This document shows, piece by piece, positions 1 through 53,383 of a stretch of DNA of 64,000 nucleotides. Below the pieces are notes generated by a model. The model did no database searches, was not told where the DNA came from, and saw nothing but the letters and a program-made list of their open reading frames with translations. The translations under genes were made by a program, and so were the position numbers. The stretch comes from an uncultured Candidatus Saccharibacteria bacterium (GTDB lineage Bacteria; Patescibacteriota; Minisyncoccia; 2-02-FULL-40-12; GWA2-44-9): assembly GCA_964356795.1 (NCBI GenBank), contig CAYHIK010000005.1:10767-74766 (forward strand), in the 5' to 3' direction. The first letter of the stretch is position 1, and every line of letters begins with the position of its first letter.

Positions 1-677
1 CGCTTCGCAATTTCTTGAAGTATCTCGCAAAGCGTCAAATCAAATCGGTGGCACCCGAGCGGGTTGAGCTGGGCAAGCAAGAAGACAGGCAGGTGAGTTT
101 CCTGGAGCCTAGCGAGCTTGAGCGATTACTCGAGGCACCCGAGGGTGGCGACTTACCTGCGCTTCGCGACCGCGCAATGCTGGCTATGTTGTTCTCGACC
201 GGCATGCGCGTGTCGGAGTTGTGCTCACTTAATCGTGACATGGTGTCCATTGAGCGGGGAGAGGTGTCGGTGCGAGGAAAGGGTGGCAAGGTGCGCCCAG
301 TCTTCGTTTCCGAGGATGCCGCAGAGCACTTGAAGGCATACACGTCAGCGCGCGTCGATATAGACCCCGCGCTCTTCATCCGCATTCCGCGCAACAAGTC
401 ATTTGGGAAGTACGACAACCTGCGCCTCACTTCGCGCTCTATCCAGCGCATCGTGCATCAACACGCGACTGCTGCGGGCATCGTGGGCAAGCAGGTGAGC
501 CCACACACGCTGCGCCATTCATTTGCTACCGACCTTTTACGCAATGGCGCAGACATTCGCTCCGTGCAGGCAATGCTTGGCCACTCAAGCGTGACTACTA
601 CGCAAATTTACACCCATGTGACCGACAAAGGCCTCCGCGAAATCCACGCAAAGTTTCTAAAGGGACCGAAGAAATAA
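1..677 (+). CDS. Tyrosine site-specific recombinase, XerC/XerD-like. The frame is open to the window edge, so the gene is 5'-truncated and only the C-terminal ~220 aa are present.
   Basis: C-terminal catalytic region with conserved R...HxxR...Y spacing (LRHSFATDLLRNGADIRSVQAMLGHSSVTTTQIYTHV) and the LRDRAMLAMLFSTGMRVSEL core-binding motif. The frame continues to nt 1 with no stop. Confidence 0.8.
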   Translation, partial: LRNFLKYLAKRQIKSVAPERVELGKQEDRQVSFLEPSELERLLEAPEGGDLPALRDRAMLAMLFSTGMRVSELCSLNRDMVSIERGEVSVRGKGGKVRPVFVSEDAAEHLKAYTSARVDIDPALFIRIPRNKSFGKYDNLRLTSRSIQRIVHQHATAAGIVGKQVSPHTLRHSFATDLLRNGADIRSVQAMLGHSSVTTTQIYTHVTDKGLREIHAKFLKGPKK

Positions 678-2750: not shown

Positions 2751-2779
2751 AACCGAGTTCATCCGAGCTCGGTTTTTTA
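2751..2779 (+). terminator. Rho-independent terminator downstream of the small zinc-ribbon ORF.
   Basis: AACCGAG...CTCGGTT stem (contains the palindrome CCGAGCTCGG) followed by TTTTTT. Confidence 0.6.
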
Positions 2780-2782
2780 ATG

Positions 2783-2979
2783 TGTGCTCTCGGCAGGAAT
2801 CACCCTCCACTCTCGGCGTCGCCAGTCGCGACGTCTCGGTTTCAGGCTCCCGCCCTCGCGGTGTCGGCTTCTACCGCCACATCGCTCCGGGCTTCGATTC
2901 CTGCCGACGGGATAGCATCTGCAAAACAACGCCGAGCCAAATGGCTCAGCATTGTTTTGATGTGCTCTCGGCAGGAATC
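2783..2979 (-). repeat. Repeats derived from the tRNA-Arg 3' end: 19-bp direct repeats at 2783-2801 and 2961-2979, plus an inverted 15-bp copy (TTCGATTCCTGCCGA) at 2893-2907.
   Basis: The identical string tgtgctctcggcaggaatc occurs twice in the same orientation; the second copy is the actual tRNA-Arg 3' end. The reverse-sense T-arm/acceptor fragment lies between them. Confidence 0.7.
2925..2957 (-). terminator. Hairpin terminator following the tRNA-Arg 3' end on the minus strand.
   Basis: Nested inverted repeat (CAAAACAA...GAGCCAaatGGCTC...TTGTTTTG) followed by a T-rich stretch in minus orientation. Confidence 0.45.
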
Positions 2980-3034
2980 GAACCTGCATTTCCGGCTTCG
3001 GAGGCTAGCGTCCTATCCATTGAACGACAAGAGC
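2963..3034 (-). tRNA. tRNA-Arg (anticodon CCG).
   Basis: Manual cloverleaf fold: acceptor GCTCTTG/CGAGAGC, D-arm GTTC/GGAC, anticodon loop CTCCGAA, T-arm GCAGG-TTCGATT-CCTGC. One A-C mismatch in the anticodon stem. CCA not encoded. Confidence 0.8.
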
Positions 3035-3930: not shown

Positions 3931-5478
3931 CTATAACGACTGCGCGACCTGCGCTTCGGTGATGAACTCTATTGTATCACCTTCCTGAATTTTGCCGTCG
4001 AATCCTGAGGTGTCAATGCGCATACCACACTCAACGCCTTGTCCAACTTCTGACACATCTTCTTTTTCCTGCTGAAGGCTCGTGATTTTCCCAATACGTG
4101 TGGGCGTCTCGCCGCGCATGAGATCAGCAATTGCACCCTTCTTCACGACACCCGAAACGACACGCCCTCCAAGGATAATCGTGCGAGCTTCGGTCTTGAA
4201 GATTGCAAGTACGCGGAGTTTTCCGACGACGGTGCGCTCGGTGGTGCTGGGTAAGAGTGTGGTGAGTTCATTTCGAACCGCTTCGATGAGTTCGTAGATG
4301 ATGTCGAATGAGCGGATGATGATTGCGTCGCGCTCGGCAAGTTTCTGTGCAGCGGATTCAGTTTGCACTCGGAACCCAATTACGATGGCTCCCTTCGCGG
4401 CGGCGGTCTTCACGTCTGCCTCGGAGATGTTGCCAATGCCAGAGCTGAGCACGCGTACGCCGACCTGCTCGCTCTTGATGGCGCCCAGTGACAACTCGAT
4501 TGCTTCCAGCGAGCTTGCAACGTCTGCTTTGAAGATAACATTCAGCGTGAGGCGCTTTGTATCGGCGGTGTATTCACCGCGGTAGGTATCAAATGCCACA
4601 GGCGGGGGAGTGACCGAATCCGCGGCGAGCTCTTCGGCTGCTTTCTTTGCGCCCGCGGTTCGGAATTGCTCGCCAACGCGTGGCGCCTCTTGCCATCCCG
4701 TAATCACTACGGGTTGCGAGGGGCGTGCCGTATCAATGATGACGCCATTAAAATCTTCCATACTCTTCACTTTGCCGACGACATGACCAACCACAATCCA
4801 GTCGCCGACGCGGAGGATGCCGTGTTGCACGAGTGCTGTTGCCACATATCCTCGACGCTTATCGAGATTTGATTCGATGATGATGCCATCAGCTGGCCCA
4901 CTCACGTGCTCCTTGAGTTCAGCGAGTTCAGCGACGAGGAGCACCATCTCGAGAAGTTCGGGTATTCCTGCACCAGTTTTTGCAGAGATTTCAATTGCGG
5001 GAGTTTGCCCGCCCCACTCTTCGACGAGCACATCTTCTTGGGCGAGGTCTTGCTTGACCTTGGCGGAGGTAGCGCCTTCTTTGTCTATTTTGTTGATTGC
5101 GACGATGCAGGGGATGCCAGCGTCTTTGATGATGCGGATTGCTTCTTTGGTCTGCGGTTTTACCGATTCATCGGCAGCGATGACGAGAATAGCAATATCG
5201 GCAACTTTCGCACCGCGGCTTCGGATTGCAGTAAACGCTTCGTGGCCCGGGGTGTCGAGGAACGTGATGAGTTTGCCATTCGCTTCTGCTTGATAGGCGC
5301 CGATGTGTTGAGTGATACCCCCTGATTCGCCCTCAATGACATTCGCTTTACGAATGGTATCGAGGAGCTTCGTTTTGCCATGGTCAACATGCCCCAACAC
5401 GACCACGACGGGAGGACGCAACGTTTCCGCTGATTTTTGAGTGGTTGAGGGTGCCATAGCGACGTTGAAGGATACCAC
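3931..5478 (-). CDS. infB: Translation initiation factor IF-2 (short form starting at the G domain).
   Basis: G1 motif VVVVLGHVDHGKTKLLD, DTPGHEAF, NKID, plus the conserved C-terminal beta-barrel domains. Confidence 0.9.
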   Translation of the reverse strand: MVSFNVAMAPSTTQKSAETLRPPVVVVLGHVDHGKTKLLDTIRKANVIEGESGGITQHIGAYQAEANGKLITFLDTPGHEAFTAIRSRGAKVADIAILVIAADESVKPQTKEAIRIIKDAGIPCIVAINKIDKEGATSAKVKQDLAQEDVLVEEWGGQTPAIEISAKTGAGIPELLEMVLLVAELAELKEHVSGPADGIIIESNLDKRRGYVATALVQHGILRVGDWIVVGHVVGKVKSMEDFNGVIIDTARPSQPVVITGWQEAPRVGEQFRTAGAKKAAEELAADSVTPPPVAFDTYRGEYTADTKRLTLNVIFKADVASSLEAIELSLGAIKSEQVGVRVLSSGIGNISEADVKTAAAKGAIVIGFRVQTESAAQKLAERDAIIIRSFDIIYELIEAVRNELTTLLPSTTERTVVGKLRVLAIFKTEARTIILGGRVVSGVVKKGAIADLMRGETPTRIGKITSLQQEKEDVSEVGQGVECGMRIDTSGFDGKIQEGDTIEFITEAQVAQSL

Positions 5479-5517: not shown

Positions 5518-5838
5518 TTAGAGAATTCCTTCCTTGCGAAGGGCGGCTACAATGGAGTAGTCGGTGCGACCCGACTCATGCCGGTGCTTTAAGTCAGCTT
5601 CAATGACGTCCCAGATGGATACTTTGACGATGTGATCGTTGTCGACTTGGATGGGGAGCTTTTCCATTTTGTGGACGTGTTCAGTGATGTGGTGGCCCTC
5701 GTTGTCTACGAGATCGTAGATGAAGTACTGAGTGTCTTCTCGAAGATTTGCATCGGGATAGCGTTCGCGCAACTCAGCCATACGAGTTTCGATCTTTTCA
5801 ATAGAACGTTCTCCGCTTGGTGTCTCGTGGTGTTTCAT
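5518..5838 (-). CDS. Hypothetical protein (106 aa). The track ORF was trimmed to the internal ATG that abuts the upstream gene.
   Basis: Begins MKHHETPSGERSIEK; it starts 9 nt after the stop of the upstream membrane-protein gene. The track's 188-aa version overlaps that gene. Confidence 0.5.
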   Translation of the reverse strand: MKHHETPSGERSIEKIETRMAELRERYPDANLREDTQYFIYDLVDNEGHHITEHVHKMEKLPIQVDNDHIVKVSIWDVIEADLKHRHESGRTDYSIVAALRKEGIL

Positions 5839-5846
5839 GGGTGACG

Positions 5847-6275
5847 CTATTTGTACGATGAACGAATCTGGAACAAGACGTACAGCGAAATGCCCGTGCC
5901 AATCAAGAATCCAAAGATGTCGAAGCGGATAAGCGAGCCAACTGCATTCAAGAGTGTGCTGTAGTATAGGAGCTTCCAGCCTGATGCGCGGTGAGCAAAG
6001 AGTCCAGAAACGGCGAGCGCAAGACATACCGCACTTGCAAGCGTGAGAACAGCGCCAAGAATGCCCCCGCCAGCGTACATCCATGCACCCGATGCAAGCA
6101 TCATCTTGCCCGCCATAGCGCTAAAGCCAAACAATGCCAGAATGAACGGCAATGCAAGCACGATACTTACGAGTGCGTAGTACGGAGCTACCTTTATGAG
6201 AAACGACTTAACGTTTGCAGGGAGACTGGGGAGGCCCGCAAACAGATCCGATAACATTTTTTCGAGTTCCTTCAT
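5847..6275 (-). CDS. Hypothetical integral membrane protein (about 4 TM helices).
   Basis: Strongly hydrophobic segments; likely in an operon with the 106-aa downstream gene. Confidence 0.55.
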   Translation of the reverse strand: MKELEKMLSDLFAGLPSLPANVKSFLIKVAPYYALVSIVLALPFILALFGFSAMAGKMMLASGAWMYAGGGILGAVLTLASAVCLALAVSGLFAHRASGWKLLYYSTLLNAVGSLIRFDIFGFLIGTGISLYVLFQIRSSYK

Positions 6276-6340
6276 ATAAATATGATATTAATACGTGCCA
6301 CTATGGTATCACGAGCGCGTGGGGGATGCTATGGAAACTG

Positions 6341-6981
6341 TGCGGAGAGGGTGGGATTCGCCCTCAATTCTTTCGGAAAAAATTTGGGGGCTATCCATAA
6401 AAACTAATTCAGTTTTGAGTAAACTATCTTAAGCATTTCTTGCGGAGATAATTTACTACTATCAATTATACAAAAGTCGTCAAAAGATTTCGACTGCTGT
6501 GCTTTGAAGGTGAAGTCGAAACGATTTTTGTCAAAATCTTTACCCCTGCTTTCGTCTCGCTCCTTCACTCGTGAATGTAATACATCATAAGGTGCAATGA
6601 GAGAAAACTTGTGGAATTGAACACCATACTCATTTGAAATCATTTCGAGCCTTTTCAAGCGTTCTTCTGAAATGCCACTATCAATTACAGCATTTTTATT
6701 TTGCTCAAAAACTCCTTTCAATTTTTCAGTTATAATCTCAAACGCTCTTTTGTTGTCGCTATCTATCGAATCGGTTCTTTCAAGAAGTTTTCTCTCATTG
6801 TCCAAACTGAAAAATTCTGTATTAGAAAGATTGTTTTTGAGCAATTCTGAAAGTGTAGATTTTCCTGAACCTTTTGGCCCATCAAGAAGAATTAGATAGT
6901 TTTTCATATTAAACTTTCAATATTTCTAGTTCTCATATAACTTTTCGTGCAACTCTCTATTTGCGGAGAGGGTGGGATTCG
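6341..6981 (-). mobile_element. tRNA-associated integrated islet: a ~600 bp AT-rich (~30% GC) segment carrying a P-loop kinase gene, bounded by 20-bp direct repeats of the tRNA 3' end (att-like).
   Basis: tgcggagagggtgggattcg occurs at 6341-6360 and again at 6962-6981 (the 3' end of the tRNA at 6964-7050). GC content of the intervening DNA is far below the window average. Confidence 0.55.
6404..6907 (-). CDS. P-loop NTPase / small-molecule kinase-like protein (Walker A GPKGSGKST).
   Basis: N-terminal Walker A motif followed by a kinase-like architecture; very low GC and AT-rich codon usage relative to neighbours. Confidence 0.6.
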   Translation of the reverse strand: MKNYLILLDGPKGSGKSTLSELLKNNLSNTEFFSLDNERKLLERTDSIDSDNKRAFEIITEKLKGVFEQNKNAVIDSGISEERLKRLEMISNEYGVQFHKFSLIAPYDVLHSRVKERDESRGKDFDKNRFDFTFKAQQSKSFDDFCIIDSSKLSPQEMLKIVYSKLN

Positions 6982-7050
6982 AACCCACGAGACTCGTGAG
7001 AGTCCGGCGGTTTAGTAAACCGCTGCTTTCAACCACTCAGCCACCTCTCC
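6964..7050 (-). tRNA. Type II (Ser-like) tRNA with anticodon loop TTACTAA, formally anticodon ACU (A34); discriminator G73.
   Basis: Acceptor GGAGAGG/CCTCTCC, D-arm GCT...AGC, anticodon stem GCGGT/ACCGC, 18-nt variable arm (GGACTC-TCAC-GAGTCT), T-arm GTGGG-TTCGAAT-CCCAC. Aligns position-by-position with bacterial tRNA-Ser but has A rather than G at position 34. Confidence 0.7.
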
Positions 7051-7084
7051 AGGGGTGAATACTAGACCACTCTATACAATCTTT

Positions 7085-7117
7085 CCGAATTTTAAAACCC
7101 CAACATCACGAAGATGT
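7085..7117 (-). terminator. Rho-independent terminator for the minus-strand gene at 7130-7561.
   Basis: CCCCAACATC...GATGTTGGGG 10-bp stem followed by a T-tract in minus orientation. Confidence 0.5.
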
Positions 7118-7129
7118 TGGGGTGGTTAA

Positions 7130-7561
7130 TTAGGGCCTGCTTGTTTGCGTAGACGCCGCTCGCAGTAGTGGGGCGAAGCGGGCGGTGAGCGATGGGAAGA
7201 TTCTGACCAAATTCGTCAAAATGTCCGGTAGTGCTTGATGGACCAGCTGGACGTGACTCATTTCGATCGCGCTGGATCCCCAGTCGGCCGAGTAGGCGTA
7301 CACACCACGACCTCCCACGTGAACAGAAGCGTTAATTCCGACGTGGTCTCGCTTACACATGATGATTTCCCAGCTGAGCCCGGGAGTGGTGAATGCGCAA
7401 ATGATCTCGTGATAGCGAAAATGGGCGACATCCTGTTTGGTGAGGAATCCTCGGGCGATCCCGATGATAGCATCGATTTCCCATTTCATCTGGTTAAGTC
7501 TTTGAGAGCCCGCCAGAATTTGCTGGATTTGCTTCATGTTAACTGCAATTTCGTTTTCCAC
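7130..7561 (-). CDS. Hypothetical protein (143 aa).
   Basis: ORF with normal GC and a downstream terminator; no recognisable motifs. Confidence 0.5.
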   Translation of the reverse strand: MENEIAVNMKQIQQILAGSQRLNQMKWEIDAIIGIARGFLTKQDVAHFRYHEIICAFTTPGLSWEIIMCKRDHVGINASVHVGGRGVYAYSADWGSSAIEMSHVQLVHQALPDILTNLVRIFPSLTARFAPLLRAASTQTSRP

Positions 7562-7735
7562 TGATTCGGCTCCTGTATCCAGGGCCCCCTATCGGGGTCG
7601 GTTGTGAACGTGCTGCTACTGGCGGGGACGATGTCCCGAAATTAGAACCAAAACGGCTTAATTTCAGGAGCGTTGATAAAATGGTACGGGATTTAAGGCG
7701 AATATTCAACGAAAATCCTGCCTTATTCGATATTC

Positions 7736-7930
7736 CTACTTTCGCGCAGAAACAGTATTAACTATCTGCTCAACTTCTTTATCTGTAACCTTTGAGCCCG
7801 AAAGGCGGGCAGATGCACCAGTGGAGGCTATAAGCGTGGCACGACGAAGTTCCGCCAGACGTTCTGATGAGATGCCAGTACTCTTCTTTATGTGCTTAGA
7901 TTTTGTCATAGAAATGTTCTTTTTAAGCAA
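7736..7930 (-). CDS. Small basic hypothetical protein (~57-64 aa).
   Basis: Start overlaps the stop of the upstream hydrolase gene by 8 nt (translational coupling); AT-rich. Weak support. Confidence 0.35.
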   Translation of the reverse strand: MLKKNISMTKSKHIKKSTGISSERLAELRRATLIASTGASARLSGSKVTDKEVEQIVNTVSARK

Positions 7931-8489
7931 CTATATCTTGAAACTCCTTAATTAATATTGGAGCTTCAATAAAGCCGTCACTTTCAGAAATATGTCCGGC
8001 ATCATGAAGCACTGTAATCTTTGATCCCAACTCTGCAAATTTCTCCTTATTTTCCTCAAATGCTCCGAACGGATCATTATCAGAAATAACCAATGTCGAT
8101 TTCGGAAGCACTGTCTTAACTTTCTGGATATTGATAGGAGTTTCTAACCAAGGTTTGGCTATTTCTTCTGTTTCTTCATCCTCCAAATTTTCTAGATTAA
8201 ACCAGCCAGCCACAAAGAGTGCTCCACCAACAGGAGTATTAATATTTTCTAGGTATCTTAAGATAGTCTGACAACCTATTGAGTGACCAATAAAATAAGT
8301 ATTGTTATCCGGAGTGCCGACAACTTCCGCAAGTTTAGCCACCCATTTTTCAATGACAGGTGTATCAATATCTGGCATGTCAGGCAACAAAACTTGGTAT
8401 CCTAATTTCTCCAACTCTGTTTTAAGCCAAGGTCTCCAATCGCCTTGTGCCCCTGCCATCCACTGATGAATAATAATTACTTTTTTCAT
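7923..8489 (-). CDS. Alpha/beta-fold serine hydrolase of the RBBP9/YdeN-like family.
   Basis: GHSIG nucleophile-elbow motif (GxSxG) in a ~190-aa alpha/beta hydrolase with Asp/His later in the sequence; low GC. Confidence 0.7.
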   Translation of the reverse strand: MKKVIIIHQWMAGAQGDWRPWLKTELEKLGYQVLLPDMPDIDTPVIEKWVAKLAEVVGTPDNNTYFIGHSIGCQTILRYLENINTPVGGALFVAGWFNLENLEDEETEEIAKPWLETPINIQKVKTVLPKSTLVISDNDPFGAFEENKEKFAELGSKITVLHDAGHISESDGFIEAPILIKEFQDIVA

Positions 8490-8550
8490 GTCAGTTCGAA
8501 TCCCTTTGGGGGTGTACCTAAAAAATCATTTATTTACTTAATAAAATCAC

Positions 8551-8642
8551 TGGCGGAGGCGGGAGGATTCGAACCTCCGAGGGGTTTTGAAGCCCCTGCC
8601 TCTTTAGCAAAGAGGTACATTAGACCACTCTGACACGCCTCC
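8551..8642 (-). tRNA. tRNA-Ser (anticodon GCU), type II, with encoded CCA.
   Basis: Acceptor GGAGGCG/CGCCTCC, anticodon stem CCTCT/AGAGG with loop TTGCTAA, long variable arm CAGGGGCTTCAAAACCCCTC, T-arm GGAGG-TTCGAAT-CCTCC, G73, CCA. Confidence 0.85.
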
Positions 8643-8698
8643 AGTATTATGTATTGCACTGACGGAACGTCATATTCTAGCACGTTTTTTGTGCCTCA

Positions 8699-9421
8699 TC
8701 AACCGTGCGCGATGGTGATGGCGGACACGGTGTGTGCGCCTGATTCCTTGAGTGCGGACGCACAGTTTTCCAGTGTGGCTCCGGTGGTGCGTACGTCGTC
8801 AATGATGACAAAGTTTTTTCCACGAACCTCCGAAGCATCGTTCACGCTAAATGCTCCCGACATATTTTGGATGCGCTCCTCGCGCGAGTGAGTTGTGACT
8901 TGAGAGTCGGTACGACGATTTCGAGTGAGGATGGTGTCGTCGAATGGCATCGCGGCGATTGCGGCAAATTCTTTTGCGATAAGAGATGCTTGGTTGTACC
9001 CGCGTTCACGGAGGCGTGCGCTGTGGAGGGGGACGGGGATGAATACCGGATTGTGGCCCAACAATAAATGAGGGCGAGATGATGAGATTCCGAGTGCGTA
9101 TGCTGTGGCACGCGCGAGGGGGACTGCTAATCCGCGGATTCCTCGGTATTTCAGATGATAGATTGCGGTTTCGACGACGCCGTCCATAAGAAATGCCGAT
9201 ACGCAGCGGTCGATGGTGGATTTCGGCGAGTGCTGATACGACGCGATTTTAAATCCTCGAACACACTCATTGCACAGGTCTATGCCGATGGTCGAGCATC
9301 CAACGCATCGCGCGGGCCAGAGCGTGTCGATGAGCCATGTTTGTAGTTCGCGTATATTCATCCACACATGAGATAAATTGATTGTCCATCGTGGTATACT
9401 TGAAATACGCATGGCATTCAA
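8699..9421 (-). CDS. comF: ComF family competence protein (phosphoribosyltransferase domain with N-terminal zinc finger).
   Basis: N-terminal Cys cluster (CVGCS...CNEC) and C-terminal PRTase motif VIIDDVRTTGATL. Confidence 0.8.
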   Translation of the reverse strand: MNAMRISSIPRWTINLSHVWMNIRELQTWLIDTLWPARCVGCSTIGIDLCNECVRGFKIASYQHSPKSTIDRCVSAFLMDGVVETAIYHLKYRGIRGLAVPLARATAYALGISSSRPHLLLGHNPVFIPVPLHSARLRERGYNQASLIAKEFAAIAAMPFDDTILTRNRRTDSQVTTHSREERIQNMSGAFSVNDASEVRGKNFVIIDDVRTTGATLENCASALKESGAHTVSAITIAHG

Positions 9422-52944: not shown

Positions 52945-53383
52945 TCTTCATCGCATTGGCGGAATGCCTTTGTTCGGTACGACTATCGCTCGCTGGTGCG
53001 AGCGCGTCTCACCCTCGGCTCGTCAGCCTGCGAGAGCCCTCCCAAAGGCACTCCGCCACTGCTCTTCAGTCTCTCGTTTTTCTCTGGGAGGAATCTTTTG
53101 CCGGCGTACCTTTACGAGGACTTTCGGAGGCCGACTGGGCCGAGAACGAGACGGCCCGCCAGTAAGGCGGGAACGTCGTGCCGAGTAGGGGTATGCCGGC
53201 GGAAAGATTCCTAATGTGTGGCTGTGGATAACTTTTATTGAACTTAGCTGCGAGGGGCGTAGGGTGTAGGTGGGATTCAGAAGACGGAAGGTCAGCCGTA
53301 AGGGGAAGCCGATAGTGTGCAACAAAACTATATTGCTTCTGGGTCCCACACAAAGAACCACGCTCGTGGCTCTTTGTGTTTTT
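52945..53383 (+). ncRNA. Candidate ~430-nt noncoding structured RNA region (no plausible ORF) ending in a strong intrinsic terminator; identity unassigned.
   Basis: All ORFs in this region are short and low-complexity. Several local hairpins are present (CCCGCC-agtaa-GGCGGG; CTCGC-tggt-GCGAG), with long-range complementarity GGAATCTTTT-GCCGGC ... GCCGGC-GGAAAGATTCC spanning ~130 nt. Terminator CACAAAGAaCCACG..CGTGGcTCTTTGTG+TTTTT at 53349-53383. Confidence 0.25.

Follow-up and report, generated by a model that had tools for sequence, protein, structure and literature searches.

When a piece of foreign DNA is found between two perfect copies of a tRNA 3' end, does the repeat record the integration of that piece? 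The question is raised by a 64-kb stretch of contig CAYHIK010000005.1 from an uncultured Candidatus Saccharibacteria bacterium (the whole stretch is hereafter called the window). Here, an AT-rich islet with a P-loop kinase gene lies directly 3' of a tRNA-Ser gene with anticodon ACU and is bounded by two copies of the 20-mer TGCGGAGAGGGTGGGATTCG: one forms the 3' end of the tRNA, and the other, which we call the 'ghost', lies at the far end of the islet, upstream of a membrane-protein gene (Table 1). The first-pass annotation of the window took this arrangement for the footprint of the kinase segment's own integration. We favor another explanation, to which we give about an even chance: a fragment of a foreign operon may have been captured 3' of tRNA-Ser(ACU), replacing the interior of an older structured unit, and the repeat may have been inherited from that unit rather than being a pair of attachment sites (attL/attR).

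A tRNA-end repeat around DNA of foreign composition

The repeat is exact over 20/20 nucleotides, and ARAGORN and Rfam both confirm that one copy is the 3' end of a serine tRNA gene, as first annotated. Exactly two copies are present in the window; a search of both strands allowing up to 3 mismatches returned no third one. Two matches were obtained in 0 of 100 dinucleotide shuffles, and the sequence identity between the copies ends abruptly at either side. A 14-nucleotide exact repeat, GATTCGCCCTCAAT, present at 5324-5337 (inside infB) and at 6355-6368 (by the ghost), was judged to be a chance match.

The 601 bp between the copies (6361-6961) have a GC content of 33.6%; the window as a whole has 52.5% and the flanks have 52-53%. 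The contrast first reported (about 30% versus about 56%) was right in kind and off in its numbers. The kinase gene has a GC content of 0.34 and a GC content at third codon positions (GC3) of 0.315, versus GC3 values of 0.56-0.61 in neighboring genes. As stated at first pass, the segment lacks an integrase: only the kinase open reading frame (ORF) and the remnant of an inositol-monophosphatase (IMPase)-family gene are present between the repeats. A promoter and terminator scan of positions 5800-8700 was uninformative, with hits no more numerous than in shuffles.

We found 39 kinase homologues at cluster level. Those that carry a label come from the Candidate Phyla Radiation (CPR): Candidatus Kaiserbacteria, Parcubacteria, Patescibacteria, Gracilibacteria, Nomurabacteria and Magasanikbacteria. 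Two contigs from metagenomes of well H41 of the Hainich aquifer (L001 and L002; related loci are designated by L numbers) are identical or nearly identical to the window, and L018 is an approximately 97% identical strain with the same kinase and the same ghost. The other close homologues (66-87% amino acid identity) occupy unrelated gene neighborhoods. In L023-L028 (87%) and L005 (74%), the kinase gene follows an Inositol_P gene after a 1-nucleotide gap, with no adjoining tRNA-Ser. In L003 (83%) and L008 (66%), its translation is coupled to that of a 2H/LigT phosphoesterase gene, in opposite gene orders (kinase-LigT in L003, LigT-kinase in L008); these partners carry two HxT motifs. In L012 (70%), a solitary kinase gene forms an AT-rich island in a genome of about 50% GC, without tRNA or repeats, and L023 likewise has the kinase gene without repeats. 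Throughout, the kinase genes hold a GC content of 0.30-0.37 in hosts ranging from 0.26 to 0.60. The constancy of this value (30-37% GC), whatever the composition of the host, strongly indicates that a low-GC gene has been transferred horizontally more than once. The foreign origin proposed in the first-pass annotation is thus upheld, both by the deviant composition and by the 66-87% identical kinases that keep their low GC content in unrelated contexts. Judging from these sequences, the islet would be foreign DNA acquired horizontally from a low-GC CPR relative. A phage vector was considered and rejected, as neither a relative of the kinase nor the structured unit described below was found on IMG/VR viral contigs.

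The tRNA gene is native to the locus; its anticodon loop and its synteny are kept in three loci of another lineage (L020-L022), where it lies at positions 92-181, 1437-1526 and 681-770, respectively. The anticodon stem-loop is identical in these loci and hence spans two lineages whose adjacent membrane proteins are just 49% identical. An A at position 34 is unusual in bacterial tRNAs other than tRNA-Arg(ACG). The window also has an ordinary tRNA-Ser(GCU) gene beside tRNA-Ser(ACU), at 8551-8642.

The insert as a fragment of a donor operon

Exactly one gene had been reported between the repeat copies. There is indeed one intact gene, but the 55-nucleotide 'spacer' at 6908-6961 is the remnant of a second. 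In a blastn comparison of the islet with the retrieved loci, homology to L023-L028 (84%) and to L005 (77%) runs from window position 6967 to 6399, and in these loci the Inositol_P gene ends 1 nucleotide before the kinase ATG. The islet retains the tail of this upstream gene, which we call IMPase': before its stop codon the window has TLSANRELHEKLYEN, versus ASANRELHEKIIEELALLKV in the donors. The window version reads ..SANRELHEK, then, past a 1-nucleotide deletion, LYEN and a stop. The first bases of IMPase', TCCGCA, overlap the end of the tRNA and form a junction microhomology (TC-GCA). At this left joint, ..CTCTCCGCA of the tRNA precedes AATAGAG, versus ..GCTTCTGCA before the same AATAGAG in the donor. 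On the right side, the match to L023 extends 5 nucleotides beyond the kinase stop codon and that to L012 about 33 nucleotides.

Since homology starts inside a truncated upstream gene, the ends of the islet are breakpoints in a donor operon, not the ends of an element. The insert is a donor-operon fragment made up of the IMPase' tail, the intact kinase gene and about 30-45 nucleotides of 3' flank, and its left end was either joined illegitimately or marks where a deletion stopped. The idea that the segment is a self-contained cassette, raised at first pass, is not supported, as homology to other kinase loci begins within a broken IMPase-family gene.

The orthologous site in a lineage without the kinase

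The first-pass annotation expected that related genomes lacking the insert would show the tRNA directly followed by the membrane-protein gene. A relative with shared synteny and no kinase does exist. Using membrane-protein homologues, we found L020-L022, which belong to a metagenome-assembled genome labelled Pacebacteria (49% membrane-protein identity) and share with the window the order tRNA-Ser(ACU), membrane gene, infB, tRNA-Cys, tRNA-Leu(UAA), tRNA-Arg(CCG). These loci have no kinase at the syntenic position, but the position is not empty. In L020, tRNA-Ser(ACU) is followed by a terminator hairpin, an inverted copy of the T-loop/T-stem (GGTGGGATTCGAAC), a GC-rich segment and a 28-nucleotide ghost (CGAATCCCACCCTTCCCGCCATTACAAA). 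This ghost repeats, in direct orientation, the 3' end of the lineage's own tRNA and stops about 49 nucleotides before the membrane-gene ATG. The GC-rich stretch that it closes folds far better than shuffled sequences (z = -6.8).

A relative without the kinase thus has its own tRNA-end copy, closing a unit of about 130 nucleotides, which argues against the repeat being the footprint of the kinase segment's integration. In L067, whose membrane protein is 60% identical, the contig begins in ..CACTCTCTCCGCA, about 77 nucleotides before the membrane-gene ATG; either a ghost or the tRNA itself could account for this start, which is consistent with the tRNA-end copy being a feature of the locus. The contigs of the closer membrane-protein homologues (L065-L067) all break right at the repeat and the content of the site is not visible in them. 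The exact empty-site junction, in which the tRNA T-arm would be joined to the distal flank CAGTTTCCATAG, was not found in the metagenome collection; the relatives that could be compared were all distant. In the lineage of L020-L022, a tRNA-end copy at the ghost position belongs to the locus even though the kinase is missing. Because this copy closes a unit at a syntenic site that has no kinase, the repeat is most likely older than the kinase.

A family of structured units 3' of tRNA genes

The segment between tRNA and ghost in L020 is one of many. The unit is about 130 nucleotides long, is GC-rich and contains the invariant blocks AGCGAUG, CCGCGAGG and UCGCGAC-GGCGA. The local T-loop/T-stem is copied on its left in inverted orientation, and 13-28 nucleotides of the tRNA 3' end are copied on its right in direct orientation. 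An intact copy in the window itself (U1 in Table 1) has this layout 3' of tRNA-Arg(CCG), with an inverted T-arm copy TCGGCAGGAATCGAA, the conserved core and a 19-nucleotide direct ghost of the tRNA-Arg 3' end, GATTCCTGCCGAGAGCACA. A metagenome search with a pattern built from the invariant blocks (AGCGATG..CCGCGAGG..TCGCGAC) returned 36 loci, of which about 23 are true members (L029-L063) and 13 are GC-rich coding false positives; the same pattern had no matches on viral contigs (IMG/VR). A covariance model, R1, adds further copies, some of them in tandem (L039, L047).

A same-strand tRNA gene ends 51-86 nucleotides upstream in 18 of 24 distinct unit copies, and three of the six copies with no upstream tRNA start within about 100 nucleotides of a contig end. 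The tRNAs concerned are those for Ser, Leu, Asp, Ala, Arg, Lys, Val, Glu and Ile. The consensus structure comprises 31 pairs, 20 of which show compensatory double changes. Cells are paired at 92.6%, versus 33-41% when the partners are slid, and the covariation score of 0.594 (controls, 0.12 at most) was reached in 0 of 500 shuffles. There are 26 G-U pairs versus 9 A-C mismatches, and this excess points to the tRNA-sense strand. Conservation of structure in the unit family is, from this covariation, strongly supported. A universal closing stem between the unit flanks was considered and rejected, such pairing being strong just in the subset with T-arm-derived flanks (7 of 24 with z < -2).

Occupancy varies between orthologous sites. 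At tRNA-Leu, a unit with its ghost is present in L020 and absent from the window; at tRNA-Arg, the reverse is observed. The unit and the tRNA-end duplication are thus gained and lost together. An apparent tRNA-Leu ghost at about 2241 in the window lies inside a 171-amino acid ORF and was dismissed as a chance match. We also note a weak match to the unit model at 52951-53078 (minus strand; 15.6 bits, E 4e-4), between convergent ORFs and with no tRNA nearby, which is either a diverged copy or noise.

A search of Rfam 15 with positions 1-450 of L020 (E<=5) returned only the tRNA itself above noise, and nothing relevant to a tRNA-flanking unit was found in the literature searched. The unit may therefore be new and appears to be undescribed. 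It resembles repetitive extragenic palindromic sequences and bacterial interspersed mosaic elements (REP/BIME), miniature inverted-repeat transposable elements (MITEs, such as Correia and RPE) and integron attC sites in being multi-copy, about 130 nucleotides long, GC-rich, hairpin-forming and intergenic, and in being present or absent at orthologous sites. Furthermore, like that of attC, its structure is conserved through covariation. It differs from all of these in being bound to the 3' flank of tRNA genes, in its inverted and direct tRNA copies and in its long invariant blocks.

In the kinase islet, no unit core is left (4.2 bits with the covariance model). The pentamer GAGGG directly precedes the ghost in the islet (..CCGAAAGAATTGAGGG followed by CGAATCC..), in U1 and in both L020 units, which are the three units closest to the islet; other units end in GACC, AAGGGT or AAAGGT. 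We tentatively hypothesize, with rather less than even confidence, that the 20-bp repeat is the footprint of an undescribed family of structured elements of about 130 nucleotides located 3' of tRNA genes. These would be either mobile elements of a new, non-autonomous type whose ends derive from the target, or new small RNA genes linked to tRNAs, and their sites would serve as landing pads that capture foreign genes such as the kinase, the kinase-LigT pair and a hydrolase.

Other foreign cargo beside tRNA-Ser genes

The hydrolase gene in question lies in a second AT-rich islet of the window, directly 3' of tRNA-Ser(GCU). This islet also holds a 64-amino acid ORF. About 45 nucleotides past the tRNA, an inverted T-loop motif, GGGATTCGAAC (minus strand, 8494-8504), is found with the hydrolase gene directly after it, and the islet ends in a degenerate copy of the tRNA end at about 7618-7655, where the GC content returns to normal. 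It looks like a second instance of the layout of the kinase islet.

Two of the kinase homologues are also placed beside tRNA-Ser genes. In L008 the order is tRNA-Ser(UGA), LigT, kinase and a degenerate ghost, and the 3' end of this tRNA is identical to that of tRNA-Ser(ACU) of the window over 28 nucleotides. In L003, tRNA-Ser(GCU) is followed by a pair of reduced units, then by the kinase and LigT genes, and last by another reduced unit. These reduced units (5652-5941 and 7155-7267), a 145-nucleotide tandem pair and a third copy of at least 58 nucleotides, all start in the 3' end of tRNA-Ser(GCU). About 1 kb beyond them, L003 has a gene pair encoding a helix-turn-helix protein and a reverse transcriptase (RVT_1).

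The closely related contig L001 has 4.2 kb in common with the window at 100% identity, from the last 8 nucleotides of tRNA-Ser(GCU) (8559) through infB. Its positions 1-344 consist of unrelated AT-rich DNA (..CCACCCCCCT joined to CTCCGCCAGTG), which replaces the tRNA and comF upstream of the tRNA-Ser(GCU) 3' end; the junction represents either a strain-level rearrangement or a tandem insertion at the tRNA end. This left part resembles the 5' flank of the unit in L040. A loosely conserved motif similar to TTTTTAGGTACACCCCCAAAG is found at 6383-6403, past the kinase stop; at 8504-8524, between tRNA-Ser(GCU) and the hydrolase gene; and on the 5' side of units from the Hainich aquifer (L001, 117-137; L040, about 40-65). 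The 71-79% identity among these sites may be due to chance.

How the islet may have arisen

The order of events that we infer begins with a unit and its ghost 3' of tRNA-Ser(ACU), as still found in L020. An IMPase'-kinase fragment from a low-GC CPR relative would then have replaced the DNA from the last base of the tRNA to about 16 nucleotides before the ghost, leaving CCGAAAGAATTGAGGG as a possible last remnant of the unit. The left joint would have formed by illegitimate, microhomology-mediated recombination, joining ..CTCCGCA of the tRNA to ..TTCTGCA of the donor, and the landing place would be a hot spot immediately 3' of the native tRNA.

Several observations weigh against this history. 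No unoccupied site is seen in relatives closer than about 49-60% membrane-protein identity. The ghost matches the tRNA of its own lineage (CCCTCTCCGCA in the window versus CCCTTCCCGCCA in L020), and an ancestral ghost would therefore need gene conversion; the alternative is independent creation. The similarity of positions 6361-6376 to unit 3' ends is short, and the core of the unit is gone. Finally, cargo closed by a tRNA-end copy is observed in four cases, all of them at tRNA-Ser genes (ACU and GCU in the window, GCU in L003, UGA in L008). Given that units occur at many tRNA types, such exclusive use of tRNA-Ser is better accounted for by an integrase specific for tRNA-Ser than by random capture.

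The islet could, accordingly, be viewed as the remains of a larger island, an explanation we hold to be rather unlikely but worth setting out in full. A tyrosine integrase targeting the T-loop/3' end of tRNA-Ser would have produced attL and attR, and deletions would have left IMPase' and the kinase gene, with one deletion ending at the tRNA/attL boundary. The geometry is classical, with a repeat that spans the T-loop to the 3' end over 20 of 20 nucleotides, and there are four cargo islets at tRNA-Ser genes in three genomes. CPR genomes also readily lose DNA. The L001 junction suggests tandem accretion at tRNA-Ser(GCU), a process described at tRNA and tmRNA genes for tycheposon islands (10.1101/2020.12.28.424599) and Dehalococcoides ssrA islands (PMC3146451). 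The islet shares with such islands a foreign cargo of deviant composition 3' of a tRNA, bounded by a tRNA-end copy, in a streamlined host, as well as a second islet at the next tRNA-Ser with the hints of accretion just mentioned. Unlike them, it has no integrase, no replication module and no fragment of either, and its 0.6 kb of cargo start in a broken gene; its kinase-less orthologous site holds a structured unit and a repeat, not an empty attB. Moreover, neither an integrase nor an integrase fragment is present in any of the islets, the kinase is absent from the viral contigs searched, similar repeats without cargo are found at many non-Ser tRNAs, and element ends are not conserved, homology beginning in the broken gene and ending 5-33 nucleotides past the stop codon. 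When the ORFs of the window were compared with manually entered XerD and resolvase reference sequences, a single recombinase was detected in the 64 kb. This Xer-like ORF (15-677, plus strand; E 1e-39 to the E. coli XerD sequence so entered) is the C-terminal part of a tyrosine recombinase truncated at the start of the window. It is 2.1 kb away from the tRNA-Arg unit and is probably a housekeeping Xer.

A second possibility, which we consider improbable, is that of an integrase-less mobilizable cassette, similar to a cis-mobilizable element (CIME) or an integron cassette, with tRNA-end repeats or units serving as sites for a recombinase acting in trans. The kinase-LigT pair of L003, flanked by three reduced units with repeats of 58-145 nucleotides, would fit such a system, as would the placement of both window islets, each of which occupies the position of a unit core, with a ghost on one side and the tRNA end or an X'-like motif on the other. 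CIMEs are indeed segments flanked by att sites and devoid of recombination genes (PMC5704250), and the islet similarly has attL/attR-like direct repeats and no integrase. However, CIMEs derive from integrative and conjugative or integrative and mobilizable elements (ICE/IME), whose members mobilize them, and a survey of the window, of related loci and of viral contigs yielded no such parent for the islet. The left end of the kinase segment is a broken neighboring gene, probably an illegitimate joint, rather than a conserved boundary. The difference in gene order between L003 and L008, the presence of the kinase without repeats in L012 and L023 and the fact that no dedicated recombinase was identified all argue in the same direction. 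We retain capture of the IMPase'-kinase fragment at an older unit as the favored explanation.

The kinase family and its predicted function

The proximity of the kinase gene to tRNA-Ser invites one further explanation: a kinase resembling the O-phosphoseryl-tRNA(Sec) kinase PSTK might act on seryl-tRNA and sit by the unusual tRNA-Ser(ACU) for co-expression. In a Foldseek search with an AlphaFold (AF2) model of the protein (mean confidence score, pLDDT, 94), the top match is the archaeal PSTK structure 3a4l (E 2.7e-8); there is also a weak match to TIGR03574 (E 0.003), and the kinase gene adjoins tRNA-Ser genes in three genomes. The TIGR03574 match, however, reaches 17 bits versus a cut-off of 290, and the protein, at 167 amino acids, lacks the C-terminal tRNA-binding domain (the targets have 236-251 residues, with target-normalized TM-scores of 0.45-0.52). 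Besides, tRNA-Ser(ACU) occurs without the kinase in L020-L022, the nearest homologues (87% and 74%) are placed after IMPase genes and not beside a tRNA-Ser, and composition marks the kinase gene as foreign to tRNA-Ser(ACU). Functional coupling to the tRNA, already largely refuted by these contexts, seems to us extremely improbable.

A toxin or resistance function, suggested at first pass, is not supported by the profile search that had been proposed there. The protein matches AAA_33, and scores below the cut-offs of Zeta_toxin (17.7 versus 22.3), CPT (13.5 versus 22) and the Gar/GrdA resistance kinases (22 versus 170), all of which were rejected. No antitoxin-like gene is seen beside the kinase.

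A family profile built from 21 kinase homologues and searched against PDB sequences found its best match among solved structures in the kinase domain of Clostridium thermocellum Pnkp (CthPnk; E 1.3e-7), with a further match to Pnkp1 of the Pnkp1/Rnl/Hen1 repair complex. Residues K16, S17, D36, R39, R113 and R117 are invariant in the 21 homologues and align with Lys21, Ser22, Asp38, Arg41, Arg116 and Arg120 of CthPnk, where Asp38 is the general base, Arg41 its partner, and the lid arginines Arg116 and Arg120 contact the NTP (PMC3902929). The match to TIGR04075 is of 30 bits, versus a whole-protein cut-off of 750. Structure comparison is less discriminating: Foldseek ranks PSTK, a putative gluconate kinase and CthPnk about equally, and adenosine 5'-phosphosulfate (APS) kinases are likewise not separable.

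The family thus resembles polynucleotide kinase (Pnk) domains such as those of C. thermocellum Pnkp, T4 Pnk and Pnkp1 in its P-loop fold, its best profile matches and its aligned catalytic Lys/Ser/Asp/Arg and lid arginines. As in Pnk end healing, the kinase gene of some homologues is coupled in translation to that of a 2H (LigT-type) phosphoesterase, the enzyme for the other half of the healing reaction. It departs from Pnk domains in being a stand-alone protein of 167 amino acids with about 21% identity and with no ligase or Hen1 partner seen, and in that other homologues are coupled to IMPase-family phosphatases. Since the residue pattern is accompanied by 2H or IMPase-family partners, both of them enzymes acting on 2'/3' phosphates, our best guess is that the protein is a 5'-OH polynucleotide kinase involved in RNA end healing, a prediction as apt to prove wrong as right. 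Against it, the IMPase-family partnership could be equally compatible with a small-molecule or nucleotide kinase.

Coordinates of features

Table 1. Features of the kinase islet, its surroundings and the tRNA-flanking units; positions are those of the window except in the last row
Feature	Position	Strand	Details
Native membrane-protein gene	5847-6275	-	followed by a 106-aa ORF and infB; orthology anchor for L018-L022 and L065-L067
Repeat copy 2 (ghost)	6341-6360	-	direct copy of the tRNA 3' end, about 65 nt upstream of the membrane-protein start codon
CCGAAAGAATTGAGGG	6361-6376	-	possible last remnant of a tRNA-flanking unit (tentative; short similarity)
3' flank imported with the kinase gene	6377-6403	-	homologous to the kinase flank in L012, partly to that in L023
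P-loop kinase gene, intact	6404-6907	-	167 aa; polynucleotide 5'-kinase/PSTK clade; Walker A GPKGSGKST; Pfam AAA_33 7e-13, AAA_18
IMPase' remnant	6908-6967	-	3' end (last ~19 codons, frameshifted) of an inositol-monophosphatase-family gene; homology to L023-L028 and L005
Repeat copy 1	6962-6981	-	from C56 in the T-loop through the 3' strands of T-stem and acceptor to the discriminator, plus 2 nt
tRNA-Ser(ACU)	6963-7050	-	class II; A34; anticodon loop UUACUAA; ARAGORN; Rfam tRNA 60.6 bits
Second AT-rich islet	7618-8550	-	GC 0.39; directly 3' of tRNA-Ser(GCU) (8551-8642)
Ser_hydrolase (PF06821) gene in second islet	7923-8489	-	GC3 0.307
Unit U1, intact	2778-2912	-	after tRNA-Arg(CCG) (2962-3034); covariance model 87.7 bits
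Units in L020 (L020 positions)	226-358; 2762-2894		at tRNA-Ser(ACU) and tRNA-Leu(UAA), respectively

Conclusions

Taken by itself, the islet is a neat but ordinary instance of a gene acquired horizontally beside a tRNA, on a small scale, by a streamlined, probably naturally competent CPR bacterium. It illustrates that foreign DNA can be enclosed by a perfect repeat of a tRNA end without its own integration having necessarily left that repeat behind. The stand-alone Pnk-like kinase, together with the 2H- and IMPase-type phosphoesterase partners of its relatives, points to a mobile RNA end-healing module in the CPR.

The unit family is the part of the locus that most deserves follow-up and is of more value than the islet itself. 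If the unit is a mobile element, its copying of target sequence in both orientations has no explanation; if it is an RNA gene, it would represent a new class of tRNA-linked RNA. Either way, such units may mark the places of gene uptake in CPR bacteria.

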